Source of the DNA: Escherichia coli
GTDB lineage: Bacteria > Pseudomonadota > Gammaproteobacteria > Enterobacterales > Enterobacteriaceae
Strand: one strand, 5' to 3'
Assembly: GCF_050320075.1 (NCBI RefSeq)
Contig: NZ_CP190018.1
DNA: 64,000 nucleotides
In this document: piece after piece, positions 15,001 through 63,068 of the stretch
Numbering within the stretch: the stretch's first letter is position 1
Layout: every line of letters begins with the position of its first letter
Program-made: the position numbers and the translations under genes
Notes under the pieces: generated by a model
The model's database searches: none
Told to the model about the DNA's origin: nothing
Seen by the model: only the letters and a program-made list of their open reading frames with translations

Positions 15001-16911
15001 CATCGCGGCGGCAGGTACCGTCAGACTCCAGGAGCCATCAGCCTGCACGGTAGTGGTAAAACTCTGTCCAGCCAGGGTTACTGTGACGGTTTGTCCTGTC
15101 TCGGCCTGTTGAGTGCTACCGGTAAGGGTCAGTGGCGCACCTTTTTCTGCGCCACTGATAATGTCATCGCCGGAGACGGTGTTAATGGTGATTAACGGAG
15201 AAACACCGACCAGCGTGATTGCTCGAGACGCCGCGCCGGTATTTCCTGCAGTATCTGTCACGGTGACGAAAATCGTATTGGCTCCGCGATCCAGCGTGCG
15301 GGTTACCGCTGGGTCCAGCGCCACATTCCAGCTGCCATCTGCCAGCACAATGCCCGTCAGGACATGAGTGCCCAATTTCACCGTTACCGTATCGCCAGGA
15401 GAAGCACCGCTGACTTGTCCGGAGATGATCTGCGCGACGGCCTGCTCAGCATTATTAAGAATATCGTCGCCCGCTACGGTATTAACACTGACCACGGGTG
15501 CTGAGGTATCTACCGTGAAATTCGCGCTGTGGCTGGTGCTGTTCCCTGCCCGATCGCTGACACTGGCATTGACAGCGTAATTACCCTCCGCCAGCGCCTG
15601 GACTTCCGTGGCAGGCAGCGTCACTTGCCAGGTTCCGTCGCTACCGACGGTTGCTGTATGGCTTTTCCCGTTGACGGTCAGTGTTACGGTTTGCCCCGCT
15701 TCTGCATTCGACGTGCCGCTCAGTACCAGCGCGACGTTATGTTCCGCAGCACTGATGATGTTGTCCTGAGCGATGGTGTTGATGGCAAGCGTTGGCGGTT
15801 GGGTATCGACCGTTAGCAGTTGCACGCCGGTGACGGTATTGCCTGTGGCGTCTTTCCCGCTGACCAGCACTGCCTGATTCCCTTCGCCTAACGCCTGCGC
15901 ATCGGCGGTCGGTACCTGCACGCTCCAGGCACCGTTAGCGCCTACGCTGGTGGTGTAGGTTTTGCCGTTTAGCGTAACGGTGAGTTCTGTTCCCTGTGCC
16001 AGATGACTACTGGTGCCAGAAAGCGTAAACCCGGCGGCCTGTTCGCTGGCGTTAATAATGTTATCGCCTGCGGTGGTGGCAACCTGCACGCTGGCCTGAC
16101 TATTGTCGATGGTTAACGTTATCGAACCGGCGTCAGTGATGGTACTGCCGACGATTTGCACCACTGACCAGGTATGTTCGCCCGCGCTTTGCGTGGGCAA
16201 ATCGACGCTCCAGCGTCCATCGCTACCGACCTGAGTACTGGCGATGGTGTCACCATTGCTGTCTTTAATCTGGATGGTCGCCCCCGCCTGCCCGCTGCCG
16301 CTAAAGGTTGGCGTAGTGTCATCGGTGGTATCGTTGGCGGAAAGAATACCGCGTTGATCGCCCTGATTATCGGTTACCAAAAACGATGGCGTGGCGTTGC
16401 CGGGTTCGGCTGGCGGTGGGTTGTTAACCACTTCAGTTTTTGAGTCATCATCGCCACCGCTTGCCAGTAAAGCGCCAAGCGCGCCGCCACCTACCGCCGC
16501 CCCCGCCAGCCATCCCCACGGGAAAGCCGTCGTCTGGCCGACGATATCAAGGTACGGCGCAATGCTTTCAATTGCGGTGGTCTGAGCGGTCAGCTCCACG
16601 GGCGCTAATCCACCTGCCGCGGTATCGGCAAATGTTACGTGGGTCAGTTGTTGACCATCGACAAACACCAGTTCGGATTGTTCGCTGGTATTTGCCGCTT
16701 GCAGGAAATAACCGTTGCAGCGGATCACCGTGCCGTCCTGCATATAGATCAACAAGTCATTTCCGTCACGAACATAACGCGCAACGGCAGATGCCTGAGC
16801 ATGAACCTGCACCACAGAGGGCTCATAAATGACAACCGTAACGTCGCCAGGATTGATCAGCGTTTGTTTGACGGATGTTTTTCGCGAAATAACATCAATA
16901 ATCAGGCTCAT
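1..16911 (-). CDS. Giant repetitive surface adhesin, probable type I secretion substrate (BapA/LapA-like, Ig-like tandem repeats); 5' end in window, 3' end beyond window start (partial, 5,637 codons in window)
   Basis: ATG at 16911-16909 with AGGAA about 8 nt upstream and an in-frame TAA 11 codons further upstream. Window positions 1-3 are in frame, and no minus-strand ORF ending inside 1-16911 is reported in this frame. My translation of the first ~600 codons gives an N-terminal module (MSLIIDVISRK...), a hydrophobic Gly/Ala stretch, then repeated ~100-aa units of the type VDTxxPxxxINTxAGDxIxxAxE...G.TVTxTLNG...DG.W. Plus-strand ORFs across the region are short low-complexity antisense shadows. 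Confidence 0.8.
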   Translation of the reverse strand, partial: MSLIIDVISRKTSVKQTLINPGDVTVVIYEPSVVQVHAQASAVARYVRDGNDLLIYMQDGTVIRCNGYFLQAANTSEQSELVFVDGQQLTHVTFADTAAGGLAPVELTAQTTAIESIAPYLDIVGQTTAFPWGWLAGAAVGGGALGALLASGGDDDSKTEVVNNPPPAEPGNATPSFLVTDNQGDQRGILSANDTTDDTTPTFSGSGQAGATIQIKDSNGDTIASTQVGSDGRWSVDLPTQSAGEHTWSVVQIVGSTITDAGSITLTIDNSQASVQVATTAGDNIINASEQAAGFTLSGTSSHLAQGTELTVTLNGKTYTTSVGANGAWSVQVPTADAQALGEGNQAVLVSGKDATGNTVTGVQLLTVDTQPPTLAINTIAQDNIISAAEHNVALVLSGTSNAEAGQTVTLTVNGKSHTATVGSDGTWQVTLPATEVQALAEGNYAVNASVSDRAGNSTSHSANFTVDTSAPVVSVNTVAGDDILNNAEQAVAQIISGQVSGASPGDTVTVKLGTHVLTGIVLADGSWNVALDPAVTRTLDRGANTIFVTVTDTAGNTGAASRAITLVGVSPLITINTVSGDDIISGAEKGAPLTLTGSTQQAETGQTVTVTLAGQSFTTTVQADGSWSLTVPAAAMGNLPDGAVAITASVTDLSGNTGNTSRTITVDSQAPALSIDPLTADNIINAAESGQDLPITGTTDAQPGQTVTVTLNGQTYQGVVQPDGTWSVTVPAANVGALADGNATVTASVNDIAGNPTSVSRVALVDATPPVVTINPVATDNVINTPEHTQAQIISGTVTGAQAGDIVTVTLNNVDYTTVVDGSGNWSLGVPASVVSGLVDGSYPINVSVTDRAGNTGSQSLTVTVNTAAPLIGINSIAGDDVINASEKGADLQITGTSDQPVNTAITVTLNGQNYTTTTDASGNWSVTVPASAVTALGQANYTVTAAVTSNIGNSNTASHNVLVDSALPGVTINPVATDDIINAAEAGVAQTISGQVTGAEDGDTVTITLGGNTYTATVGSNFTWSVSVPAADIQALGNGDLTVSASVTNQNGNTGSGTRDITIDANLPGLRVDTVAGDDVVNIIEHGQALVVTGSSSGLAEGTPLTVTINNVEYTTAVQADGSWSVGVTAAQVSTWPAGTVNIAVSGESSAGNSVSITHPVTVDLTPAAIAINTIATDDVINAAEKGADLTLSGTTTNVEPGQTVTVTFGGKNYTASVASDGSWTATLPAADLTALPEGSASAQASVSNINGNSASAVHNYSVDSSAPTIIINTVASDNIVNASEADAGVTVSGSTTAEAGQIVTVTLNSPTVQTYQATVQADGSWSINIPAADLEALTDGSHTLTATVNDKAGNPASTTHNLAVDLTVPVLTINTIAGDDIINAAEHGQALVISGSSTGGEAGDVVTVTLNSKTYTTTLDASGNWSVGVPAADVTALGSGPQTVMATVTDAAGNSDSETHTVTVNLTAPTIGINTIATDDIINATEKGADLQISGTSNQPAGTTITVTLNGQNYTATTDASGNWSTTVPASAVGALGEASYTVTANVTDSAGNSNSASHNVQVNTALPGVTINPVASDDIINAAESGVAQTISGQVTGATAGDTVTVTLGGKTYTATVQGNLSWSVDVPAADIQAIGNGDLTVNASVTNGVGNTGSGSRDITIDANLPGLRVDTVAGDDVVNSIEHGQALVITGSSSGLAAGAALTVVINNVTYGATVLADGTWSLGVPAADVGNWPAGTVNITVSGTNTAGTTTTITHPVTVDLAAVAISINTVSGDDVINAAEKSADLTLSGSTSGVEAGQTVTVTFGGKTYTATVAGDGSWTTTVPAADLSALRDGDATVQASVSTINGNTASATHAYSVDATAPTLAINTIATDDILNAAEAGNPLTISGSSNAEAGQTVTVTLNGVTYTGTVQADGSWSVSVPTADLSNLTASPYTVSASVNDKAGNPATATHGLAVDLTVPVLTINTVSGDDIINAAEHGQALVISGSSTGGEAGDVITVTLNSKTYTTTLDASGNWSVGVPAADVTALGSGPQTITATITDIAGNSDDASRTVTVNLTAPTIGINTIASDDVINATEKSADLQITGTSNQPAGTTITVTLNGQNYTATTDSSGNWSATVPASAVSALGEASYTVTANVTDSAGNSNSASHNVLVNSALPAVTINAVATDDIINAAESGNAQTISGQVTGAAAGDTVTVTLGGNTYTATVQANLSWSVSVPAADIQAIGNGSLTVNASVTNVVGNTGNGSRDITIDANLPGLRVDTVAGDDVINSIEHNQALVITGSSSGLTAGTALTVEINNVTYGATVLADGTWSLGIPAADVSNWPAGTVDITVSGTNSAGTTSTITHPVTVDLAGVAITINTLSGDDVINAVEKGETLVVSGSTSGVEAGQTVTVTFGGKNYTTTVESNGSWTVNVPPADLAALPDGAGNVQASVSNINGNSAQADRAYSVDATAPLVTINTIASDDILNVSEAGAGITISGTTTAQVGQTLTVTLNNNTYQTTVQADGTWSVNVPATDLSGLTASSYTVTATVSDKAGNPASADHALAVDVTAPDLTINTVAGDDIINAIEHGQALVVSGTSTGAAAGDVVTVTLNGKNYTTTLDASGNWTVGIPAADVTALATGSQTITASLSDRAGNSDSTTHNVTVDLSGPTLTISTVSDDDIINSTEKTQDLTISGGSSGLATGTTVTVMLNGLAYSATTDSSGNWSVTVPASAVGALGEAVYQISASATDSAGNNGSTTHTVNVESLLPGVIINTVAGDDIINAAEIAVAQTISGQVTGTAVAGNTVIVTIGGNQYTATVQPDLSWSVSVPANVLQALGNGELTISASVTNSANNTGTATHDIVIDANLPGLRVDTVAGDDVINSIEHTQALVITGSGSGLAAGAALTVVINSVTYGATVLADGTWSVGVPAADVTNWPAGTVNIAVSGTNTAGTTTSISHPVTVDLAAVAITINTLSTDDVINAAEKGSDLQLSGTTSDVEAGQTITVIFGGKSYTTTVAAGGTWGLTIPAADLATLPDGAANVQASVSNVAGNSAQATHAYSVDATAPSVTINTIASDDILNAAEAGSALTISGTSTAEAGQTVTVTLNGVNYSGNVQADGSWSVSVPTGDLANLTASPYTVSAAVSDKAGNPASATHNLTVDLAAPVVTINTVAGDDIINATEHAQAQIISGSATGATTGNTVSVTIGTTTYTTVLDANGNWSIGVPASVISALAQGDVTITATVTDSAGNSGTASHTVTVALGAPVLAINTIAVDDIINATEKGADLAISGSSNQPAGTQITVTLNGQNYTTTADASGNWSVTVPASRVSALGEATYTVTAAATDSDGNSGSASHNVQVNTALPGVTINVVATDDIINAAEAGVDQTISGQVTGATAGDTVTVTLGGATYTATVQANLSWSVDVPAAALQALGNGELTISASVTNSVGNTGNGTREITIDANLPGLRVDTVAGDDVVNIIEHGQALVITGSSSGLATDSNVTLTINGQTYVAAVLADGSWSVGVPAADVSAWPAGTVTITASGSTTAGNPVSVTHPVTVDLTAVAVSINAITADDVINAAEKGAALTLSGSTSGVEAGQTVTVTFGGKTYTASVAANGSWSTSVPAADMAALRNGDASAQASVSNVNGNNATTTHAYSVDASVPTVTINTIAGDDILNAAEAGAALTITGSSTAEAGQTVTVTLNGANYTGTVQTDGSWSISVPPADLSALTASNYTVSAAVSDKAGNPASVNHNLTVDTSVPVVTINTVAGDDVINATEHAQAQIISGSATGAATGSTVTVTIGTNTFTTVLDASGNWSVGVPASVVSALANGTVTINASVTDAAGNSGSATHQVTVNTGLPSITFNAISGDNVLNADEKGQPLTISGSSTGLATGAQVTVTLNGHNYSATTDAAGNWTLTVPVSDLAALGQANYIVSASATSAAGNTASSQANLLVDSGLPGVTINTVAGDDIINAAEAGAAQTISGVVTRAAAGDTVTVTLGGNTYTAQVQADLSWSVSVPAADLQALGNGDLTITASVTNANGNTGSGTRDITIDANLPGLRVDTVAGDDIVNSIEHGQALVITGGSSGLNAGVPLTITINGTAYSATVQADGSWSVGIPAANVSAWPAGALTVEVDGQSSAGNPVGVSHPFTVDLTAVAISISTVASDDVINAAEKGTNLTLSGSTSGIESGQTVTVTFGGKTYTASVAANGSWSVNVPAADLAILPDGAANVQASVSSASGNSASATHAYSVDASAPTLTINTIASDDILNATEAGSPLIISGTSTAETGQTVTVTLNGATYSGNVQADGSWSVSVPPSALGALSASNYTVSATVNDKAGNPGSASHNLAVDTTAPVLTINTVVGDDIINDAEHAQALVISGTSTGGEAGDVVSVVLNGKTYTTTLDASGNWSVGVPAADVAALGSGAQTITASVSDRAGNSDDASRTVTVSLTAPVISINTIAGDDVINATEKGSDLALSGISDQPAGTAITVTLNGQNYSATTDSSGNWSVTVPASAVSALGEASYSVTASVTNAQGNSSTASHNVQVNTALPGVTINPVTTDDIINAAEAGSAQTISGQVTGAAAGSTVTVELGGKTYTATVQADLSWNVSVPAADWQALGNGELTVNASVTNAVGNTGSGTRDITIDASLPGLRVDTVAGDDVVNIIEHSQAQVITGSSSGFAAGTALTVVINNQTYAATVLANGSWSVGVPATDVSNWPAGTLNITVSGANSAGTQTSITHPLTVDLTTVAVSINSITSDDVINAAEKGAALTLSGSTSGVEAGQTVTITFGGKTYTTTVAANGSWSTTVPAVDMATLRDGDASAQVRVTNVNGNSATATHEYSVDSAAPTVTINTIASDNIINASEAAAGVTVSGTSTAETGQTLTVTLNGTNYQTTVQADGSWSLTLPASDLTALANNGYTLTASVSDLAGNPGSASKGVTVDTTAPVISFNTVAGDDVINNVEHTQAQIISGTATGAVAGDRLVVTIAGQQYVTSTDASGNWSVGVPASVISGLADGTVTISATITDSAGNSSTQTHNVQVNTAAVSLSVSTISGDNIINAAEAGSALTLSGTGTNFAAGTVVTVLLNGKGYSATIQSNGSWSVNVPAADVAALSDGTSYTVSASAQDSAGNSATASRSVAVDLTAPVISINTVSTDDRLNAAEQQQPLTLNGSTSAEVGQTVTVTFGGKTYTATVAANGTWALNVPAADLAALGQGAQTITASVNDRAGNPGQTTHALTVDTVAPTVTIATVAGDDIINNAEQLAGQTISGTTTAEVGQTVTVTFNGQSWTATVGSGGSWSVFIPAQQFAGLSDGSYTISATVSDQAGNPGSASRGVTLNGDVPSVTINTFAGDDVVNAAEHGSSLVISGTTTAPVGQTLTLTLNGKTYTTTVQTGGSWSYTLGSVDVTALADGNAYVINASVSNAIGNTGSSNHTITVDLSAPAMGINIDSLQADTGLSSSDFITSVSPVVVNGSLTAALASNETAQISIDGGVTWTTLTVTGTTWRYNDSRTLTDGSYLYQVRVIDAAGNVGATDSQNVVIDTIAPDPAVKTIAINAITTDTGLITNDFVTSDTTLAVSGTLGAALSSGEFAQISIDGGTTWQNLSVSGLTWTYLDG
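300..16200 (-). repeat. Intragenic tandem repeat array: ~300-bp (about 100-aa) Ig-like units organised in ~1.8-kb super-repeats
   Basis: Recurring motifs at regular spacing: ctccagcttaaat near 3050, 4850, 6645, 8440, 10240, 12040 (and a variant near 13840); gttttgccgccaaaggtgacggtgac-like near 1291, 2489, 4276, 6076, 7871, 9671, 11471, 13271. Antisense shadow ORFs (MPPKVTVTVCP...) recur at 2489, 6080, 7874, 9674. Array bounds are approximate. Confidence 0.8.
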
Positions 16912-17019
16912 AATGGCATTCCTGATAAATGGCGCACATCCTTAGCGAGTCCATTTATCTAAATAAGACAAAGGTAATCACTCAACAACGATGCATACCT
17001 GATATTAATAATGGCAGGA

Positions 17020-18375
17020 TTATTTCAAGTCGGGTAAGTCGTTGTATAAGCCCTGTTTAATTCCCGCTAATGGAATAAGGTTATTAACCGCAGCGGCATA
17101 ATTCACTGCGGCGACCCAGCCATCATAATTGGCATTTATTTCAGCCGATTGCGCCTGAAAGACATCTTGCTCGACGGTTAATAGATCATTCAGGCTGCGT
17201 TTACCCAATTTATATTCATTTTGGTAGACATCTCGCGTTCTGTGCGCACTTTCAGATTGCGCTAACCCAGCCTCTTCACGACCCCGTGCGCCTGTCCAGT
17301 TGGCATATGCCACAGACGCTCGTTGCAGCACATCCAGTTTTGCCTGTTCGACCTGCGAGGCAGAGATTTTTTGTTGCCCTTCAGCCTGTTGCACCTGGGC
17401 AGAAACCGCGCCGCCCTGATACAGCGGCGCGTTAACGTTCAGTTGTAGCTGATCATCCCAATACGAGCGGTCGCTGGTCTGGTAGCGCGTTTTGCCCCCC
17501 TGAATACTCAGCGTTGGCCAGTATTGCGCTTTCGTTTTTTCCACGCCGTACTGTGCTGACTGGCGTAAGTTTTCTGCCGCCAGCACCAGCGGGATGGACT
17601 GGTAATCAATATTTTTCAGCGATACCGGCTGCTCGGCTAATTCAGCAGGTGGCGCGGCTATCGCCTCCGGCTGTACGCCAGTGAGCACCGCCAGTTGCGC
17701 TTTGGCGCTTGCCATCTGCGCCTGATATTGCTCCAGCGTTGAGCGCATTCCGGCAATGCGCGTCTGGGCCTGTAATTCATCCGACGACGAGTTCAGGCCA
17801 GCGTTAGCACGCAATGCTGCCATGTTGTAGACGTTTTCCAGCGAGTGAATATTGCGTTGAGCCGCATCGCACAAAGCCTGATAACGACTGACTTCCATAT
17901 AGGCAGTCGCCGTTTTCTCTGCAACATCGGTTAAGGTTGCCATCAATTTAAAGCGGTAGCTGTCACGGGCGGCAGTTTGCAGTTTGATATCGTTGTTAGT
18001 TTTACCAAAGTCATACACCAGCTGTGTCAGGGTTATGCCATACGAAACGTTGTTATCAAGCCTGCCACTGGAGTCCGTTTGTCGGGACGGTCCCGCATTG
18101 CCGGTTAATCCAACGTGCGGATACCAGGCACTTTTGGCTTCATCAATTTGCGCTTCGCCAATACCTATCTGCGCCGCCTGTTGAGTGACGTCGGGATTTC
18201 GCGCAAAGGCGCGTAATATACTTTCCTGTAAAGATAATTGGGCAACTGGCGTTACCGCTGGGGCGTTCGCCCATTGTGGCAGCGGTGCAGCAATTGTAGC
18301 TTCTCCCATCACCATAAAACTTATTAAAAAAATAAACCCATTATTTTTACGGCTTTTAAACTGGAATCGCGCCAT
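17020..18375 (-). CDS. TolC-family outer-membrane efflux/secretion protein (probable T1SS outer-membrane factor)
   Basis: 451-aa ORF with N-terminal signal-peptide-like segment (MARFQFKSRKNNGFIFLISFMVMGEATIA) and coiled-coil-rich Q/A/L composition typical of outer-membrane factor proteins; AGGAAG about 10 nt upstream; same strand and 108 bp upstream of the giant adhesin start. Confidence 0.7.
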   Translation of the reverse strand: MARFQFKSRKNNGFIFLISFMVMGEATIAAPLPQWANAPAVTPVAQLSLQESILRAFARNPDVTQQAAQIGIGEAQIDEAKSAWYPHVGLTGNAGPSRQTDSSGRLDNNVSYGITLTQLVYDFGKTNNDIKLQTAARDSYRFKLMATLTDVAEKTATAYMEVSRYQALCDAAQRNIHSLENVYNMAALRANAGLNSSSDELQAQTRIAGMRSTLEQYQAQMASAKAQLAVLTGVQPEAIAAPPAELAEQPVSLKNIDYQSIPLVLAAENLRQSAQYGVEKTKAQYWPTLSIQGGKTRYQTSDRSYWDDQLQLNVNAPLYQGGAVSAQVQQAEGQQKISASQVEQAKLDVLQRASVAYANWTGARGREEAGLAQSESAHRTRDVYQNEYKLGKRSLNDLLTVEQDVFQAQSAEINANYDGWVAAVNYAAAVNNLIPLAGIKQGLYNDLPDLK

Positions 18376-18712: not shown

Positions 18713-20005
18713 TTATACGGTTTTATTGCGCTTCATGACCATTGCCACAATAAGGCTGAGTAAGATTGCACCAATAATCCATATCAACGCACGGCTGCCC
18801 TGGGACCACAGGCTGTAGATAAAGCCAATGATCACCAACAACATCACCAACGTACCAACGATAAGAATCGGCAACAAGGCGTGAATATCATGACGCAGGC
18901 GGATCGCCACCACAAACACCGCCAGATAGCAGATCAAAAAGGTGGCGCTGGCAACGCTGGCGAGTGAGCCTAAATTCAGCGCCGCCGTCATCAGCATAAT
19001 CAGCACCACGACAATGATGTTGCCCCAGGTACTCTGCCGCCACAGGGATTTATTCATTAGCTTCGGCAGTTCGCGTTCGCTGCCCATGTTGTCCATGATG
19101 TTAAACACGGCGAACAGGTTCGCGTTGATGGCTGAAGCCGTCGCCAGTAAAGCGCCGATGACGACGATCACATAACCCACATGCCCGAGCAGCGGAGAAG
19201 CTGCCTGCGCTACGGCGGTATCGGCATATTTTTCTAACTCTAAAGCCGATACATCGCTAAGCAAAACCAGCGCCAGCGAGATATAAAGCAACGTGGTAAC
19301 GCCAATCGCCACCAGAAACGCCCGTGGCATAATGACCTGCGGATCTTTCACTTTATCCGCCGCGTTCGCCATCATGCCAAAGCCCGCATAGGCAAGGAAG
19401 GTTATCCCGATACAGGAGAAGAACGCACCGGAGCTGGGGGGCGCAGAGACAGAAATATGCGCCGGTTGCAGCGACCAGACACCGGCAATAATCAGCAATA
19501 ACAGGATCATCATTTTAATGCCGACGAGGATCACTTCCAGCCGCCCTACCGCATGGTTGCTTAAGGAGTTGAAAAGCGTCATCACCGCAATGATCCCCAA
19601 CGCGTAGAGCAATATAAGGTGCTCCTCCTGGCTGCCTTCATGCAAAAACTGCACGGCATAAGCGCCAAAAGCACGGGCGACCATGGCGATGCTCACCGCC
19701 AGCGTCAACAGGTACAGTAACGAGAGCGCCAGCGAAAAGACGCCGTTGCCTAATCCGCGACGAAAGAAGTCGATAATACCGCCATTGCTGGGATAGCTCG
19801 CCCCCAGGCGCGCATAGGCATAACCGGAAAACATCGCCACAATACCGCCAAATGCAAAGGCGACCCAGGTCGAGGCTTCCATTAGCAACGCAGCCTGCCC
19901 CAGCAGCGCGAAGATCCCCGCCCCCACCATTGCCCCAATACCGATGGAAACGACGTTCCATAGACCGAGGGGTTTGTTACCGTTATTACCTTCCGTGTTC
20001 ATCAT
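18713..20005 (-). CDS. ybaT: APC-family amino acid permease YbaT
   Basis: 430-aa polytopic membrane protein ORF; start codon 2 nt from the glsA stop (operon with glsA). Confidence 0.9.
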   Translation of the reverse strand: MMNTEGNNGNKPLGLWNVVSIGIGAMVGAGIFALLGQAALLMEASTWVAFAFGGIVAMFSGYAYARLGASYPSNGGIIDFFRRGLGNGVFSLALSLLYLLTLAVSIAMVARAFGAYAVQFLHEGSQEEHLILLYALGIIAVMTLFNSLSNHAVGRLEVILVGIKMMILLLLIIAGVWSLQPAHISVSAPPSSGAFFSCIGITFLAYAGFGMMANAADKVKDPQVIMPRAFLVAIGVTTLLYISLALVLLSDVSALELEKYADTAVAQAASPLLGHVGYVIVVIGALLATASAINANLFAVFNIMDNMGSERELPKLMNKSLWRQSTWGNIIVVVLIMLMTAALNLGSLASVASATFLICYLAVFVVAIRLRHDIHALLPILIVGTLVMLLVIIGFIYSLWSQGSRALIWIIGAILLSLIVAMVMKRNKTV

Positions 20006-24135: not shown

Positions 24136-24930
24136 ATGGATCTGTTGTACCGGGTAAAAACGCTTTGGGCCGCGCTGCGCGGTAATCATTACACCTGGCC
24201 TGCTATCGATATCTCTCTTCCCGGCAATCGCCATTTTCATCTGATTGGCAGTATTCATATGGGCAGCCACGATATGGCTCCCCTGCCCACCCGTTTGCTC
24301 AAAAAGCTCAAAAACGCCGATGCGCTGATCGTCGAGGCGGATGTTTCCACCAGCGATACGCCTTTTGCTAATTTGCCTGCCTGCGAGGCGCTGGAAGAGC
24401 GCATTAGCGAGGAGCAACTCCAAAACCTGCAGCACATTAGCCAGGAGATGGGCATTTCTACCTCACTCTTTTCTACCCAACCGCTGTGGCAAATCGCGAT
24501 GGTTCTTCAGGCGACGCAGGCACAAAAACTGGGGCTGCGGGCAGAATACGGTATCGATTACCAGCTATTGCAGGCGGCGAAGCAACAACATAAACCCGTG
24601 ATTGAACTGGAAGGGGCTGAAAACCAGATTGCCATGTTGCTCCAGCTCCCTGACAACGGACTGGCACTGCTGGACGATACGCTGACCCACTGGCACACCA
24701 ATGCACGGTTGCTGCAACAAATGATGAGCTGGTGGCTGAATGCGCCGCCGCAAAATAATGAAATAACGCTGCCTAATACGTTCAGTCAATCGCTGTACGA
24801 TGTGCTGATGCATCAGCGAAATCTCGCCTGGCGGGACAAATTATGCGCCATGCCGCCGGGGCGCTATGTGGTCGCAGTCGGTGCACTACACCTGTATGGA
24901 GAAGGGAATTTGTCGCAGATGTTGCGCTAA
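24136..24930 (+). CDS. ybaP: TraB/GumN-family protein YbaP
   Basis: 264-aa ORF, ATG at 24136 with GGAGG upstream. Confidence 0.85.
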   Translation: MDLLYRVKTLWAALRGNHYTWPAIDISLPGNRHFHLIGSIHMGSHDMAPLPTRLLKKLKNADALIVEADVSTSDTPFANLPACEALEERISEEQLQNLQHISQEMGISTSLFSTQPLWQIAMVLQATQAQKLGLRAEYGIDYQLLQAAKQQHKPVIELEGAENQIAMLLQLPDNGLALLDDTLTHWHTNARLLQQMMSWWLNAPPQNNEITLPNTFSQSLYDVLMHQRNLAWRDKLCAMPPGRYVVAVGALHLYGEGNLSQMLR

Positions 24931-25012
24931 AAAAATGGCCAATATCGCTATTGGCCCGTCAAAGAGGAATTTCATTTTTTTATTATTATGCCGTCACTTT
25001 AAGCGACGGTGT
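24929..25012 (-). ncRNA. chiX: ChiX (MicM/SroB) small regulatory RNA
   Basis: Minus-strand sequence ACACCGTCGCTTAAAGTGACGGCATAATAATAAAAAAATGAAATTCCTCTTTGACGGGCCAATAGCGATATTGGCCATTTTTT matches the ChiX sequence as I recall it, including the terminator hairpin (ggccaata/tattggcc) and U-run; lies between ybaP and ybaK. Confidence 0.85.
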
Positions 25013-30654: not shown

Positions 30655-30689
30655 ACGGTGGTTGCCGGATAATAGGCGCGGATATGTAG

Positions 30690-30772
30690 GCCTGATAAGA
30701 CGCGCCAGCGTCGCATCAGGCATCGAGAGCCAAATGCCAGATGCGGCGTGAACGCCTTATCTGGCCTACGAA
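30690..30772. repeat. REP/BIME element (two inverted REP copies)
   Basis: gtaggcctgataagacgcgccagcgtcgcatcaggca and tgccagatgcggcgtgaacgccttatctggcctac, inverted relative to each other, in the ybaL-gsk convergent spacer. Confidence 0.7.
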
Positions 30773-38085: not shown

Positions 38086-40017
38086 TCAAATGGGGCGGAT
38101 ACTTTCTTCATCCAGCTCCGCATCGAAGAACCGACGCAGGGTCTGAATATTATTATCCGCAATAATGGACTCGCGCGCCTGCGCAAGTTTTTCTTCGTAT
38201 ATCGCCTGACGCCATTCCAGCGGCGTACGCACCGCGGGATTATCATCTTCAACGATAGTCAGTTCAACCGTTGAACCTTTTAACATGCTCAACGCTTCAG
38301 CCAGTTTTTGCTGTGCGCCGCGGTTGTTCAAATGCCGCTGAGAGGAGCGCAAATGCAGACATACTGCGTTGTCGCTCTCCTCTTTCCAGGCATTTAACGC
38401 CACCTGTTCGACCAGTTTTGGTAGCGAAAGTTGACTCACCTGAGCCGCCCACGGGTCGCGCTCAATGGCTTCTGCCGCCAGCTTCGCCGCCAGTTCCGGC
38501 GTTTTTTCATGTTCCAGCGCTTTTTTCAGCGCCTTCGGCGTAGCGACCACTTCTTTTTGCTGCATCACTGGAGTGGTGGCCTTCCAGCGATACGCTTCTT
38601 TTTTGGCTGGCGCTTTTTCCAGCGCCGATGGCACCGGACGCGCCTGAACGCGATCGGTGACCGAAGCCAGTCTTTCCAGCGCAGCGTTATTCACCGGCCG
38701 CGCGCGGGTAGCGGCTGCCGGTTCACTCTTTTTTGCTTTGGTTGCTCCCTGCACGCGCTGCAACTGCTGGCGCGCCGCCAGCACCTGGCTGGTGGTTTCC
38801 GGGAGCGGTACAGTCGGTGCCTGCTGCGGCGCTGATTGCGGTTGCGGCGGCACCTGGGTTGGCGTCATTACTGCCGTTGGCGCGACGGGCGCAAAGGACT
38901 GGCGTGGCACTTCTGGCTCAGGCAGCGGCATACGCGGATGGAACGCCAGCGCGCGCAACAGCGTCATCTCAACGCCCATACGGCGGTCTGGCGCATACGG
39001 TAATTCTTTGCGACCAATCAACAGCGTCTGATAGTAAAGCTGAATATCCGTCGGCGGTATGGTGCGCGCCAGTTCACGCATCCGCAGCTCGATAGCGGCC
39101 ATGTCGTTGCCAAGTGCAGCAGGCGAAAGTTGTACCATCGCAATACGATGCAACAGGCCGAGCATTTCCACCAGCAACGCTTCCCACTCGATACCACGGG
39201 CAGCGGCTTCATTAATCAGTGCCATTACGCGCTCGCCGTTGGCCTCGATCATCGCTTCAACCAGCGACAGCGCCTGATCGTCGTCAAGCGTACCCAGCAT
39301 CGCACTGACCGCCTGAGTTGAAACCTGGCCGTCACCGCTGGCAATCGCCTGGTCGGTCAGACTTAAGGCATCTCGCAGGCTGCCTTCAGCGGCGCGTGCC
39401 AGCAATTGCAGCGCCCGCGGCTCGTGAGCGATATGTTCTTCGTTGAGGATGTGCTCAAGCTGATGGCGAATTTGCTCGACATCCAGCGCCTTGAGATGAA
39501 ATTGCAGACAACGTGACAAAATCGTCACCGGCAATTTCTGCGGATCGGTCGTCGCCAGCAGAAACTTAACGTGCTCTGGCGGCTCTTCAAGGGTTTTTAA
39601 CAGTGCGTTAAAGCTGTGGCGCGACAGCATATGCACTTCGTCGATCAGATAAACTTTGAAACGACCACGCGCCGGAGCGTACTGGACGTTATCCAGCAGG
39701 TCGCGAGTGTCTTCAACTTTAGTGCGCGAGGCGGCATCGATTTCAATCAGATCGACAAAGCGCCCCTGCTCGATTTCACGACAGTTATCGCACACGCCGC
39801 ACGGCGTCGCGGTAATGCCGGTTTCGCAGTTTAGCCCCTTCGCCAGCAGTCGGGCGATAGAGGTTTTTCCGACGCCACGGGTGCCGGAAAAAAGATAAGC
39901 ATGATGAATACGCCCTAACGACAAGCCGTTCGCCAGTGCGGTCAGCACATGTTCCTGGCCGACGACGTCAGCAAAGGTTTGTGGGCGCCATTTTCGGGCT
40001 AAGACCTGATAACTCAT
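38086..40017 (-). CDS. dnaX: DNA polymerase III subunits tau and gamma
   Basis: 643-aa ORF with AAA+ Walker A (GTRGVGKT); contains the frameshift site listed separately. Confidence 0.97.
   Translation of the reverse strand: MSYQVLARKWRPQTFADVVGQEHVLTALANGLSLGRIHHAYLFSGTRGVGKTSIARLLAKGLNCETGITATPCGVCDNCREIEQGRFVDLIEIDAASRTKVEDTRDLLDNVQYAPARGRFKVYLIDEVHMLSRHSFNALLKTLEEPPEHVKFLLATTDPQKLPVTILSRCLQFHLKALDVEQIRHQLEHILNEEHIAHEPRALQLLARAAEGSLRDALSLTDQAIASGDGQVSTQAVSAMLGTLDDDQALSLVEAMIEANGERVMALINEAAARGIEWEALLVEMLGLLHRIAMVQLSPAALGNDMAAIELRMRELARTIPPTDIQLYYQTLLIGRKELPYAPDRRMGVEMTLLRALAFHPRMPLPEPEVPRQSFAPVAPTAVMTPTQVPPQPQSAPQQAPTVPLPETTSQVLAARQQLQRVQGATKAKKSEPAAATRARPVNNAALERLASVTDRVQARPVPSALEKAPAKKEAYRWKATTPVMQQKEVVATPKALKKALEHEKTPELAAKLAAEAIERDPWAAQVSQLSLPKLVEQVALNAWKEESDNAVCLHLRSSQRHLNNRGAQQKLAEALSMLKGSTVELTIVEDDNPAVRTPLEWRQAIYEEKLAQARESIIADNNIQTLRRFFDAELDEESIRPI
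38690..38734 (-). other. dnaX programmed -1 ribosomal frameshift site (A AAA AAG heptamer plus downstream stem-loop) generating gamma
   Basis: Minus strand GCAAAAAAGAGTGAACCGGCAGCCGCTACCCGCGCGCGGCCGG; slippery heptamer at 38734-38728, an in-frame-after-shift UGA two codons later, and a GC-rich stem-loop immediately 3'. Encodes the ...KAKKSEPAAATRARPVN... segment. Confidence 0.85.
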
Positions 40018-45530: not shown

Positions 45531-46178
45531 TTATTCGTTAGTGGCAGGATTACGAAGCGTGGGGCACAGGAGATACATCTCCAGTAAGATGGCGACGTAA
45601 TCGCGGGCTTCTTTTTTAAGATCAAAAGATTGCGGGGCAAAGAGCCAGTTTTCCATCAGGCCGGAAATATAGCCGCGCATAATAATTGCTGCCCGACGCG
45701 TCATTAAATCCGCAGGCAACATTTTCGCTTCAATACAATGTTTTAACGTTTGTTCTATACGGTCATAACTTTCCAGACAGAGATTACGTTGTGCCTGTTG
45801 CACAACAGCCATTTCTCCGACAAATTCGCATTTGTGGAATATAATCTCCATCAATAATCGACGCCGTTCTTCTGTCACCGTGGATTCAAGAACATGAATT
45901 AATATCTCTCTTAATACTGAGAGTGGATCGCCAGGGAATTTTGCCTGATACTCAAGCTCTAGTTCACCAATATTGGATTCTGACAGTTCCCAGATCTCAC
46001 TGAACAAATCCGACTTGTCTTTAAAATGCCAGTAGATTGCACCGCGCGTAACGCCAGCTGCTTTTGCAATCTCACCCAGCGAGGTGGATGATACCCCCTG
46101 CTGTGAGAAAAGACGTAGAGCCACATCGAGGATGTGTTGGCGCGTTTCTTGCGCTTCTTGTTTGGTTTTTCGTGCCAT
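45531..46178 (-). CDS. acrR: TetR-family repressor of acrAB
   Basis: 215-aa ORF with N-terminal TetR HTH ([21 protein letters not shown]); divergent from acrA. Confidence 0.95.
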
Positions 46179-52572: not shown

Positions 52573-52687
52573 TAGGTTTTTCGCAACTGTTATGCAAAAT
52601 TGTGGTAAATCTGTTACTTTCCCTCTACTATTCCCACGTTAAAATAGGGTGTTCCCTGGAAAGTTGCAGATACCACGAAGGCAAACG

Positions 52688-55377: not shown

Positions 55378-55492
55378 GGGTGGGGGCCCTGCCAGCTACA
55401 TCCCGGCACACGCGTCATCTGCCTTGGCTGCTTCCTTCCGGACCTGACCTGGTAAACAGAGTAGCGTTGCGGGAGAACCAACAGAGCCCCCA
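55378..55492 (-). ncRNA. ffs: 4.5S RNA (signal recognition particle RNA)
   Basis: Minus strand reads GGGGGCTCTGTTGGTTCTCCCGCAACGCTACTCTGTTTACCAGGTCAGGTCCGGAAGGAAGCAGCCAAGGCAGATGACGCGTGTGCCGGGATGTAGCTGGCAGGGCCCCCACC, matching the 4.5S RNA including the conserved domain IV region; ends are +/- 2 nt. Confidence 0.9.
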
Positions 55493-56777: not shown

Positions 56778-57638
56778 ATGAGTCAGGCGCTAAAAAATTT
56801 ACTGACATTGTTAAATCTGGAAAAAATTGAGGAAGGACTCTTTCGCGGCCAGAGTGAAGATTTAGGTTTACGCCAGGTGTTTGGCGGCCAGGTCGTGGGT
56901 CAGGCCTTGTATGCTGCAAAAGAGACCGTCCCTGAAGAGCGGCTGGTACATTCGTTTCATAGCTACTTTCTTCGCCCTGGCGATAGTAAGAAGCCGATTA
57001 TTTATGATGTCGAAACGCTGCGTGACGGTAACAGCTTCAGCGCCCGCCGGGTTGCTGCTATTCAAAACGGCAAACCGATTTTTTATATGACTGCCTCTTT
57101 CCAGGCACCAGAAGCGGGTTTCGAACATCAAAAAACAATGCCGTCCGCGCCAGCGCCTGATGGCCTGCCTTCGGAAACGCAAATCGCCCAATCGCTGGCG
57201 CACCTGCTGCCGCCAGTGCTGAAAGATAAATTCATCTGCGATCGTCCGCTTGAAGTCCGTCCGGTGGAGTTTCATAACCCACTGAAAGGGCACGTCGCAG
57301 AACCGCATCGTCAGGTGTGGATCCGCGCAAATGGTAGCGTGCCGGATGATCTGCGCGTTCATCAGTATCTGCTCGGTTACGCTTCTGATCTTAACTTCCT
57401 GCCGGTAGCTCTACAGCCGCACGGCATCGGTTTTCTCGAACCAGGAATTCAGATAGCGACCATCGACCATTCCATGTGGTTCCATCGCCCGTTTAATTTG
57501 AATGAATGGCTGCTGTATAGCGTGGAGAGCACCTCGGCGTCCAGCGCACGCGGCTTTGTGCGCGGTGAGTTTTATACCCAGGACGGCGTGCTGGTTGCCT
57601 CGACCGTTCAGGAAGGAGTAATGCGTAATCACAATTAA
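56778..57638 (+). CDS. tesB: Acyl-CoA thioesterase II
   Basis: 286-aa product starting [44 protein letters not shown]; internal ATG at 56778. Confidence 0.93.
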
Positions 57639-57686
57639 AAAAATAGCCGGAGGTGAAAACCGTCCGGCTGTTTTTTGCAGTGCTTG

Positions 57687-58973
57687 TTACGCGTTATAGG
57701 CATTTTCGCCGTGGCTGTTGACGTCAAGCCCTTCTCGCTCCTGTTCTTCCGGCACACGCAGGCCAACCGTCAGATCCGCCAGTTTGTAGCCGATAAATGC
57801 CACCACACCGGACCAGACGATCGTAATGGCGATGCTTTCCAGCTGTACCAGCAACTGATGGCCCATCGTCACACCTTCAGCGAAGCCCACGCCGCCCAGC
57901 GAACTGGCGGCAAAAATCCCGGTCATGATACAGCCGACAATGCCACAAACGCCGTGCACACCGAAGACATCGCAGGGATCATCCACCCGCAGCAAGCGTT
58001 TGAGCATGGTAACGCCCCACAAGCCCGCCAGACCAGCTACCACGCCGATAATCAACGCGCCGCCAACACCAATGTAGCCACACGCTGGCGTCACGCCGAC
58101 CAGACCGGCAATCGCGCCAGAACACGCTCCCAGCAGTGAAGGCTTTCCGCGCAGCGCCCATTCACCGAAGATCCAGCCAAGAATTGCTGCCGCCGTTGCG
58201 ACCACAGTATTCACAAATGCCAGTGCCGCGATTTCATTCGCCGTGCCCGCTGACCCGGCGTTAAAGCCAAACCAACCGATATAGAGAATGGCAGTCCCGG
58301 TGAAGACCATCGGCAGGTTGTGCGGTTTAAACGCCTCTTTACCGAAGCCCACGCGTTTGCCTATCAGATATGCGCCCACCAGACCGGCGATTGCGGCGTT
58401 AATGTGCACCACCGTGCCACCCGCGAAATCCAGCGCACCGTGAGAAGCCAGCAAACCACCGCCCCAGACCATATGCGCAATCGGAATGTAGGAGAGCGTC
58501 AGCCATACCACCACGAAAATCAACACAGCTGAGAAGCGGATTCGTTCCGCCAGCGCCCCAACTATCAAGCCTACGGTAATGCAGGCAAACGATCCCTGAA
58601 ACGCTACGTGGATATACTGATAAATGCTGCCCATCACCGCCGTCAGTTCGATGTTTTTCAGCATCAACCAGTTAATGTTGCCGAAGAAGTTGTTTCCCTC
58701 ACCAAACGCCAGCGAGTAACCGTAAACCACCCAGAGAATACAGACCAGTGCAAACGTCACCGTCACCTGCGTCAGCATCGACAGCACGTTTTTGCCGCGA
58801 ATCAACCCACCGTAAAACAGGGCAATCCCCGGAATAGTCATAAACAGCACCAGCGCAGTACAAATCATCATAAACGCATTGTCGGCTTTATCGGCCACCG
58901 CAGGTGCAGCCATTACCAGTCCCGGCAGCATCGCCAGTGAAGCAAGCCCAGTTTTTATCGTCGCTATCTTCAT
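57687..58973 (-). CDS. amtB: Ammonium transporter AmtB
   Basis: 428-aa ORF with signal peptide and Amt/MEP/Rh family features; 30 bp downstream of glnK on the same strand. Confidence 0.95.
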   Translation of the reverse strand: MKIATIKTGLASLAMLPGLVMAAPAVADKADNAFMMICTALVLFMTIPGIALFYGGLIRGKNVLSMLTQVTVTFALVCILWVVYGYSLAFGEGNNFFGNINWLMLKNIELTAVMGSIYQYIHVAFQGSFACITVGLIVGALAERIRFSAVLIFVVVWLTLSYIPIAHMVWGGGLLASHGALDFAGGTVVHINAAIAGLVGAYLIGKRVGFGKEAFKPHNLPMVFTGTAILYIGWFGFNAGSAGTANEIAALAFVNTVVATAAAILGWIFGEWALRGKPSLLGACSGAIAGLVGVTPACGYIGVGGALIIGVVAGLAGLWGVTMLKRLLRVDDPCDVFGVHGVCGIVGCIMTGIFAASSLGGVGFAEGVTMGHQLLVQLESIAITIVWSGVVAFIGYKLADLTVGLRVPEEQEREGLDVNSHGENAYNA

Positions 58974-59002
58974 TTTTCGTTCCTGTTGCTGTGTGCCAGA
59001 GA

Positions 59003-59341
59003 TTACAGCGCCGATTCGTCGGCTTCGCCGGTACGAATACGAATGACGCGTTGCAATTCAGCGACGAAGATTTTGCCGTCGCCAATTTTTCCGGTGTAAG
59101 CCGCTTTGCTGACGATATCGATCACTTCATCGAGTTGGTCATCAGCAATCGCCACATCAATTTTTACTTTTGGCAGGAAATTGACGCTGTATTCCGCCCC
59201 CCGGTACAGCTCGGCATGTCCTTTCTGACGCCCGAAACCTTTCACTTCGGTGACGGTCAGGCCCTGAATACCAATGGAAGATAACGCTTCACGAACGTCT
59301 TCCAGCTTGAATGGTTTGATTATCACGGTCACCAGCTTCAT
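59003..59341 (-). CDS. glnK: PII nitrogen regulatory protein GlnK
   Basis: 112-aa product MKLVTVIIKPFKLEDVREALSSIGIQGLTVTEVKGFGRQKGH...; internal ATG at 59341. Confidence 0.95.
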   Translation of the reverse strand: MKLVTVIIKPFKLEDVREALSSIGIQGLTVTEVKGFGRQKGHAELYRGAEYSVNFLPKVKIDVAIADDQLDEVIDIVSKAAYTGKIGDGKIFVAELQRVIRIRTGEADESAL

Positions 59342-59393
59342 AGATCCCCTCCGGTCAGAATTCGGTAATGGTTCTGCTACACGAAGAAGGTAT

Positions 59394-59409
59394 TGCAAGC
59401 GGTGTGCCA
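59394..59409 (-). promoter_or_regulatory. Sigma54 (-24/-12) promoter of glnK-amtB
   Basis: Minus strand reads TGGCACaccgcTTGCA, a match to the sigma54 consensus, about 55 bp upstream of the glnK ATG; TGCACCA-like NtrC half-sites further upstream near 59495-59515 (weaker). Confidence 0.65.
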
Positions 59410-59521
59410 GAAATGAAAAACGAGAAGGAGAGCAGGAAGTTAAGAAGATTGAAAACAAAAACGCACTATGACAGTGCACAGTGCGTTACATTTTTGCACC
59501 AACGATGAAATATTGCGCTAT

Positions 59522-63068
<3,547 letters not shown>

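Follow-up and report, generated by a model that had tools for sequence, protein, structure and literature searches.

The glnK-amtB operon belongs to the core of the enterobacterial nitrogen-starvation response, with functions in nitrogen sensing and ammonium uptake, and its promoter, glnKp, is a textbook nitrogen-regulated promoter. Since glnKp also serves as a standard reporter of NtrC activity, recognising it at the locus described here is a matter of annotation, not of discovery. In K-12 work, glnKp is treated as dependent exclusively on NtrC phosphorylation, and specific NtrC activity was found to be ~400-fold higher under starvation (PMC3870243). The -24/-12 17-mer of the K-12 promoter, CTGGCACACCGCTTGCA, is sigma-54 ChIP-seq site OS03, which stood 18-fold above threshold, with the peak centre 7 bp away from the centre of the glnK motif (PMC4591121). 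NtrC ChIP-seq peak no. 1 (39.7-fold) falls in the spacer between mdlB and glnK and was assigned to glnK-amtB, and glnK mRNA was not readily detected in nitrogen-starved cells with a glnG deletion (PMC4066584). In gSELEX, RpoN holoenzyme and NtrC each recovered the same spacer on their own as well as in combination (PMC8743547). The published NtrC box is TGCACCAnnnTGGTGCA, in which the GCAnnA...TnnTGC positions are the most conserved (PMC8743547). In Salmonella, reporter assays showed that the glnK promoter is sigma-54 dependent, and a promoter fusion rose from 1.1 to 1778 Miller units on nitrogen limitation.

We analyzed a stretch of 64,000 nucleotides, referred to as the window, whose source is E. 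coli. A 501-base query across the locus gave 100% matches to several complete genomes, and 5421 of the 5426 complete E. coli genomes matched it over at least 80% of its length with at least 95% identity; the matches carry mdlB and glnK annotation (RefSeq). On the minus strand, the gene order is mdlA, mdlB, a 180-bp spacer (59521-59342), glnK and amtB, followed by the convergent tesB, which is the order found in K-12 (mdlA-mdlB-glnK-amtB-tesB). The upstream ORF, mdlB, ends with a TGA stop codon at 59524-59522 (ORF list, RefSeq annotation of the identical sequence and K-12 annotation). The glnK coding sequence (59341-59003; ORF list, RefSeq and K-12 annotation) encodes a PII-family nitrogen regulator of 112 amino acids, with its ATG at 59341-59339, and is preceded by the Shine-Dalgarno (SD) sequence GGAGGGG (59352-59346), which lies in a block conserved among enterics. 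The second gene of the operon, amtB (58973-57687; ORF list and K-12 annotation), starts 29 nt past glnK and encodes an ammonium transporter of 428 amino acids. A hairpin with a T-run located 3' of amtB (57669-57637, minus strand), bidirectional with tesB and passing the strict hairpin/T-run rule described below, is likely the end of the glnK-amtB operon. We identify the locus as glnKp, the sigma-54-dependent, NtrC-activated promoter of the E. coli glnK-amtB operon, with a probability of about 0.95.

Comparison with K-12 glnKp (b0450-b0451), a check proposed in an earlier note on this DNA, revealed only four substitutions in 221 aligned columns, with no difference in the -24/-12 17-mer, in either NtrC box, in the leader or in the SD sequence. 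Two of the substitutions fall in the T-rich tail past the proximal NtrC box (window, GTTTTTGTTTTC; K-12, GTTTTCATTTTC), one just downstream of this tail (AATC in the window versus AAAC) and one in the distal CT tract (CTCCTTC in the window versus CTCTTTC). Among E. coli sequences from metagenomes, the tail variant of the window occurs less often than the other, and it resembles the tail of E. albertii. Occupancy of the promoter by sigma-54 and NtrC and its dependence on NtrC and nitrogen are shown by the published experiments on the near-identical K-12 sequence; the identity to K-12, the quality of the motifs and the deep conservation of the layout were established in the present analysis. The nitrogen-limitation control of glnK-amtB that the earlier note had put forward is supported by all of these lines, namely, K-12 identity, sigma-54 and NtrC ChIP-seq, gSELEX, expression in the glnG deletion strain, position weight matrices and cross-species footprinting.

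The sigma-54 -24/-12 element, CTGGCACACCGCTTGCA, occupies positions 59410-59394 on the minus strand, with its GG at 59408-59407 and its GC at 59396-59395, one helical turn apart and in agreement with the pattern TGGCAC-N5-TTGCW, and equals both the K-12 ChIP-seq motif OS03 and the gSELEX motif. The earlier note had called it a strong match to TGGCAC-N5-TTGCA at 59409-59394, about 55 bp upstream of glnK. The sequence is indeed composed of TGGCAC (59409-59404), the spacer ACCGC and TTGCA (59398-59394), and the ATG is 52 nt away from the 3' end of the motif and 54 nt away from the -12 GC, in fair agreement with the distance stated in the note. This 11-base core has a single exact match in the 64 kb, compared to ~0.03 matches expected by chance on both strands from the base composition of the window. 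We then scored the window with a 17-position matrix trained on the 41 remaining intergenic-sense sites that Bonocora et al. obtained by sigma-54 ChIP-seq (PMC4591121). The glnK site came first in the window with 16.0 bits and, when ranked together with these 41 sites, was 21st of 42. The description as strong thus holds in the sense that the site is consensus-like, typical and the best of the window, but the site is not exceptional, as 16.0 bits was reached somewhere in 99 of 200 random 64-kb sequences. Because about half of such random sequences attain this score, the motif by itself would not prove a promoter, and its significance stems from its position and its conservation.

With regard to position, the element is in the sense orientation relative to glnK and at a short distance from the gene start. 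No sigma-70-like promoter was found in the spacer when the region 58900-59700 was scanned. The transcription start is predicted at 59383 on the minus strand, both by the convention of motif centre + 19 and by the published prediction of a start 42 nt before the glnK ATG (PMC4591121), giving a predicted 5' untranslated region of 42 nt (59383-59342). In 2015, the EcoCyc status of the glnK promoter was "predicted." The accessible literature, including primer-extension reports and searches for start site coordinates, yielded no mapped base-resolution start for E. coli glnK, and the predicted coordinates in both K-12 versions retrieved unrelated matches only. Of the box sequences of the promoter, the sigma-54 17-mer alone was found in the literature searched.

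Conservation was assessed in 79 glnK loci from other species, one genome per species, with thresholds of at least 13.5 bits for a sigma-54 site within 400 nt upstream and at least 11 bits for an NtrC box at -60 to -230. A sense-strand sigma-54 site was present in 58 of the 79 loci, an antisense site in none, and 48 of the 58 sigma-54-positive loci also had an NtrC box, compared to 0.6% of shuffled controls. The layout was the same in all 14 other enteric loci, where the gap between the sigma-54 motif and the ATG ranged from 43 to 88 nt.

Alignment of 16 enteric sequences, namely, the 14 other species, the window and K-12, revealed three conserved blocks: the proximal NtrC box, the -24/-12 element and the SD region. 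Within the proximal box, GCAC-N7-GGTGCG was invariant across all 16 sequences. The distal box shows little or no change in E. albertii, Citrobacter and Enterobacter and is always 20 bp from the proximal one. Escherichia, Citrobacter, Enterobacter, Yersinia and Rahnella share this two-box module with its 20-bp spacing, but at varying distances from the promoter, the proximal enhancer being centred at -87 in Escherichia, at -97 in Citrobacter and at about -141 in most enterics. What the present analysis adds to the known picture is that the Escherichia enhancer lies ~50 bp nearer the promoter than in most enterics; judging from the alignment, Escherichia has lost ~50 bp between enhancer and promoter with the 20-bp box spacing kept.

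Turning to the NtrC boxes themselves, the TGCACCA-like half-sites claimed upstream of the sigma-54 element were all found, as TGGTGCA (59501-59495), TGCAC (59478-59474) and GTGCG (59466-59462). An NtrC enhancer was taken to comprise at least two 17-bp dyad boxes resembling TGCACCA-N3-TGGTGCA, each scored over 14 positions, 8 of which form the core. At 10/14 or better, the window contained 50 sites compared to ~33 expected, and plain consensus counting failed to lift the glnK boxes above the 64-kb background. Because the count does not separate the boxes from this background, we replaced it by a symmetrised matrix trained on 16 sites from 8 of 10 other NtrC-associated K-12 sigma-54 promoters; glnK was excluded, and the two remaining promoters gave no training site. 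The training sites were chosen by consensus match, and the matrix is therefore independent of glnK but not fully of the consensus. To place all promoters on a common scale, the start was set at the sigma-54 motif centre + 19, following the rule of PMC4591121. On this scale, the boxes of glnA fall at -140/-108 and those of glnH, which overlap, at -108/-121. These are the positions known from the literature, and their reproduction supports the scale.

In the scan with this matrix, 59478-59462 ranked first (12.3 bits) and 59498-59482 ranked tenth (10.5 bits) of ~64,000 positions, and these two were the only pair 18 to 34 bp apart at that threshold, compared to 0.03 pairs expected per 64 kb. The proximal candidate box, TGCACTGTCATAGTGCG, is centred at -87, matches the consensus at 10/14 positions and the core at 7/8, and is conserved; the distal candidate box, TGCAAAAATGTAACGCA, is centred at -107, with 9/14 consensus and 7/8 core matches. 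The centres of the two boxes are 20 bp apart, corresponding to whole helical turns, and are located within about -80 to -160 upstream of the sigma-54 element. We infer the exact boxes from the matrices and from conservation, and they should be regarded as candidates. A possible third, weak box, AGCGCCTGAATAGCGCA (59530-59514; centre -139), scored 9.5 bits (rank 19 in the window) and overlaps the mdlB stop codon, 32 bp beyond the distal box. Enterobacter, Yersinia, Rahnella and Acerihabitans also have a box at the mdlB stop, located 61 to 62 bp upstream of the proximal box, and the third box at -139 is proposed tentatively.

An 11/14 NtrC-like match inside mdlB (59680-59664, at -289) was also considered and was rejected as an unsupported extra site. 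Its matrix score is lower (10.0 bits, rank 13), and it is part of a coding sequence, where conservation is inseparable from protein constraint.

The published NtrC ChIP-seq interval (471741-471821 in U00096.2) corresponds to positions 59422-59342 of the window, that is, to the core promoter, 40 to 135 bp downstream of the boxes. In the same table, the intervals for glnH and rutA likewise contain sigma-54 motif centres, and the offset towards the core promoter looks like a property of that dataset. Since the interval covers the core promoter, ChIP-seq does not pin down the boxes, and gSELEX, too, locates NtrC in the spacer at less than base resolution. In the model that we favour for glnKp, sigma-54 RNA polymerase would wait in a closed complex at the -24/-12 element (59410-59394). 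Under nitrogen limitation, NtrC~P would bind the imperfect 17-bp dyads at about -87 and -107, and possibly at -139, oligomerise, loop the DNA to touch the polymerase and spend ATP to open the promoter. Transcription would then run from near 59383 through the 42-nt leader, glnK and amtB and end at the amtB-tesB hairpin. The bases contacted by NtrC, the exact start site and the looping are the parts of this model that we infer.

Sigma-54 promoters can carry a CT-rich anti-SD tract that acts as an insulator, and glnKp is the founding example (Levy et al., bioRxiv 10.1101/086108). The window shares with the published insulator a CT tract centred near -4, namely, the proximal CT-rich anti-SD segment CCTTCTTC, also given as CCUUCUUC, at 59390-59383 on the minus strand just upstream of +1. 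In the predicted fold of a read-through transcript, CCUUCUUC pairs with the native glnK SD sequence GGAGGGG (59352-59346), and the segment is missing from the predicted sigma-54 transcript starting at 59383. The energy of the read-through fold was no better than that of shuffled sequences (z = 0.57). In addition, the published insulator tests used reporter ribosome binding sites, whereas the pairing with the native glnK SD sequence seen here is a fold prediction; the predicted fold of the window thus agrees with the insulator model but does not prove it. A distal CT-rich tract, CTTCTTAACTTCCTGCTCTCCTTCTC (59447-59422, minus strand), lies between enhancer and promoter. The insulator study describes it as the distal CT-rich region, and mutations there showed no correlation with a loss of insulation (bioRxiv 10.1101/086108).

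A further element of the spacer is a terminator-like hairpin, AACGCACUGUG-CACUGU-CAUAGUGCGUU, with a U-rich tail (59487-59450, minus strand), detected by a terminator scan, by RNA folding and by a strict rule, under which the hairpin must reach at least -11 kcal/mol and 7 or more of the 9 residues immediately behind it must be T. The element is located 35 to 70 nt after the mdlB stop and overlaps both NtrC boxes, the proximal box lying inside the hairpin. The stem comprises 11 bp, the hairpin reaches -13.5 to -14.8 kcal/mol, 8 of the next 9 residues are T, and the RNA fold of the stretch gave -25 kcal/mol (z = -2.8). The strict rule was satisfied by 16 sites in the window, the mdlB-proximal hairpin among them, compared to 5.8 ± 2.1 in random sequence. 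The compact matches to this rule, to which the mdlB-proximal hairpin belongs, were seen at gene ends; another marks the end of the sroB RNA match, and amtB and tesB share the bidirectional pair mentioned above.

These features raise the possibility of a dual use, added to the promoter reading, in which the DNA of the NtrC enhancer, once transcribed as mdlAB RNA, would form a hairpin and U-tract terminator that shields glnK-amtB. Passing the strict rule at 35 to 70 nt past the mdlB stop speaks for this reading, as does the presence of mdlB upstream and on the same strand in 15 of 15 enteric loci. In the eight Enterobacteriaceae sequences of the enteric set, the proximal box is followed by 7 to 8 T in 9, and in seven of the eight the hairpin reaches -13 to -19 kcal/mol, with the box starting 43 to 70 nt after the mdlB stop; for Enterobacter Ag1, the script chose the box at the stop codon, and the T-run there rests on the alignment and on a strict-rule match. 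A metagenome scan anchored on the glnK start, and not on the hairpin, raised the sample to 122 sequences, of which 113 (45 distinct) had the box and the T-run, a feature conserved in most Enterobacteriaceae; T positions 32 to 35 were invariant, while the rest of the tract drifted. Four metagenome loci (L100, L108, L175 and L200), where the anchor pattern lay in an unrelated context, were left out. The pair count is suggestive at most: the long stem was paired in 93% of cells, compared to 23 to 66% when slid, and displayed a single double change (C:G in 29, U:A in 7, unpaired in 2). This change amounts to about one event with two exceptions and is confined to the related Escherichia/Citrobacter group, which weakens it as support, and the proximal-box palindrome, which could form an alternative stem, never varies and is thus uninformative for covariation. 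The hairpin is the main terminator-like element of the spacer in nine Enterobacteriaceae, the NtrC boxes of glnA have no T-run behind them, and published work shows read-through into glnKp to be important enough that there is a second insulator, which acts on translation (bioRxiv 10.1101/086108). Against a dual use stands the fact that two tandem NtrC boxes automatically create hairpin potential. Moreover, among the Term-seq rows listed there is no entry for mdlB or glnK, and our searches found no literature linking mdlB, glnK and a terminator. One Enterobacteriaceae lineage is without the T-run, and no terminator-like element was found in the spacers of Yersinia, Rahnella, Acerihabitans and one Photorhabdus, indicating that a terminator is not universally required. 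The lineages without the T-run mostly have no terminator elsewhere in the spacer, an observation that supports neither view. As the T-run is absent from Yersinia, Rahnella and Photorhabdus, the overlap of enhancer and putative terminator appears to be an innovation of the Enterobacteriaceae. The main alternative to this dual role is that the conserved T-run after the proximal box acts as an intrinsic DNA bend that aids a short NtrC-sigma-54 loop at a promoter with no IHF site. Sigma-54 promoters that lack IHF rely on intrinsic curvature, the Escherichia enhancer is unusually close (-87/-107), and a second T-tract, CGTTTTTCATTT (59421-59410), follows ~40 bp downstream of the first one, roughly in helical phase. 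The T-run nevertheless stays with the box where the enhancer is at -141 and looping is easier, and it is missing from Yersinia, Rahnella and Photorhabdus, where the same box and promoter are present. Overall, we consider a bending role unlikely, and the dual use of the enhancer as a terminator to be a serious candidate that still falls somewhat short of even odds.

Two other readings would question the promoter itself or its enhancer. The upstream palindromes might serve only as the mdlB terminator, with NtrC acting elsewhere or indirectly, a view that could draw on the weak consensus matches of the boxes (10/14 and 9/14), on the centring of the NtrC ChIP-seq interval on the core promoter and not on the palindromes, and on the 11/14 match within mdlB. 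However, a matrix derived from other promoters put the proximal box first in the window, above the intragenic match (10.0 bits, rank 13, in coding sequence), the box is invariant also in lineages without the T-run, and Pseudomonas, Marinobacter and others, whose upstream context is unrelated, have NtrC boxes at equivalent positions before glnK, making this explanation very improbable. Even less credit can be given to the idea that the -24/-12 match arose by chance or is an unproductive sigma-54 site, as is the case for many intragenic sites in E. coli. About half of random 64-kb sequences do contain a match with such a matrix score, and two other sigma-54 ChIP sites within the window are intragenic (PMC4591121). 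Yet the glnK element has the right strand and distance and recurs ahead of glnK in 58 of the 79 loci, in antisense in none, and the published dependence of glnK expression on NtrC and nitrogen already contradicts this idea, whose probability we regard as negligible. The locus provides a worked example of motifs, here a perfect sigma-54 core and NtrC-like half-sites, that become significant only through their position and through comparison between species.

Besides the identification of glnKp, the analysis adds the testable suggestion that the NtrC enhancer overlaps a putative mdlB terminator. If the dual use were true, the same ~40 bp would be read as a duplex by NtrC dimers and as an RNA hairpin and U-tract by polymerase, and, together with the anti-SD tract, glnK-amtB would gain two layers of insulation against read-through.

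We finally compared glnKp with other NtrC-dependent promoters. Like glnKp, glnAp2 of E. coli combines a sigma-54 -24/-12 element with tandem 17-bp NtrC dyads and has no sigma-70 activity from the element. However, its near-consensus boxes (13/14 and 12/14) are located at -140/-108, with weaker ones nearer the promoter, while those of glnKp match at 10/14 and 9/14 and are located at -87/-107. In the literature, glnKp is viewed as firing later, at higher NtrC~P levels (PMC3870243). Boxes that match at only 10/14 and 9/14 positions fit this view. The later firing at higher NtrC~P was reportedly described by Atkinson et al. in 2002. The weaker NtrC promoters have boxes no better than those of glnK (10 and 9 for rutA, 10 and 9 for ddpX, 10 and 10 for yhdW). 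Among these, ddpX and rutA, whose NtrC enhancers are of low affinity, carry similar pairs of 9 to 10/14 boxes spaced by 21 bp, and the ddpX pair at -85/-106 nearly superimposes on the glnKp pair at -87/-107, although the downstream genes of ddpX and rutA differ from those of glnKp. The glnK gene of Pseudomonas has its boxes at -109/-142 and a gap of 160 to 210 nt between the sigma-54 motif and the ATG, in contrast to the 43 to 88 nt of the enterics. Experiments showed the Salmonella glnK promoter to be sigma-54 and nitrogen dependent, a feature shared with glnKp.

Among the metagenome loci recovered by the scan anchored on the glnK start, L163 (contig Ga0209547_100038) carried a glnK core promoter and leader of the E. 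coli type, and upstream of about -45 unrelated sequence was found in place of both NtrC boxes. Judged from the sequence, this loss of both boxes suggests an insertion or rearrangement that would have displaced the enhancer. In loci L120, L141, L151, and L189, which represent one Enterobacteriaceae lineage, the proximal NtrC box (CGCACCAAAGCGGTGCG) was good, and another NtrC box was located at the mdlB stop. No T-run was found directly 3' of the proximal box in these loci; another GC-rich hairpin, with a weak T-tract, was located about 10 nt farther downstream.

We also considered NtrC-like matches elsewhere in the window. One of them (GACACCATTCTGGTGCT, 59664-59680), which agrees with the consensus at 11 of 14 positions and scores 10.0 bits (rank 13), lies inside mdlB at about -289 from the predicted glnK transcription start. 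This match recurs in Citrobacter and is weaker in E. albertii, but since it is located within coding sequence, its conservation says little. At 52580-52609, two NtrC-matrix matches, ranked second and eighth, overlap with a sigma-54 PWM match of 12.3 bits on the minus strand (52582-52598), a cluster that probably arose by chance. Many further chance matches to the NtrC consensus in the window stem from the regular repeats of an adhesin gene, whose period corresponds to multiples of about 300 bp.

This gene is an open frame on the minus strand (1-16941) that continues past the window start and encodes at least 5,647 aa. At its N terminus, a BapA_N prefix domain precedes Ig-like repeats of the Big_13, Big_6, and Big_3_3 types, and on the basis of this domain content we assign the frame to a BapA-like giant repeat adhesin. 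It is adjoined by a gene of the TolC family (OEP; 451 aa, 17023-18375, minus strand). Because cueR is presumably the next gene after ybaT in the K-12 order, the region comprising the adhesin and the TolC-family gene looks like a strain-specific island.

Between the convergent genes amtB (stop at 57687) and tesB (stop at 57638), we found a bidirectional terminator-like element, composed of a hairpin and a T-run (57637-57677); the hairpin energies were -14.7 (minus strand) and -17.1 kcal/mol (plus strand). Rfam matches in the window, counted only if above the gathering score, were sroB sRNA (24929-25012), naRNA4 (30689-30766), the DnaX frameshift element (38689-38753), and the small SRP RNA (ffs; 55387-55483), all on the minus strand.

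The second-ranking sigma-54 PWM match in the window, TTGGCGCGTTTCTTGCG (14.6 bits, 46137-46153, plus strand), is located inside acrR and is the same as the ChIP-seq site IA05, described as intragenic antisense within acrR (PMC4591121); the K-12 coordinate of IA05 projects exactly onto this position. The third-ranking match, CTGGCGCTGGTTTTGCT (19260-19276, minus strand), falls within a 430-aa ORF (18713-20005) that is taken, from its length and position, to be a putative ybaT. It corresponds to the intragenic sense site IS02, CTGGCACTGGTTTTGCT (PMC4591121), from which it differs at motif position 6, where A is replaced by G. As it sits 642 bp off the K-12 projection of IS02, an indel therefore separates the window strain from K-12.
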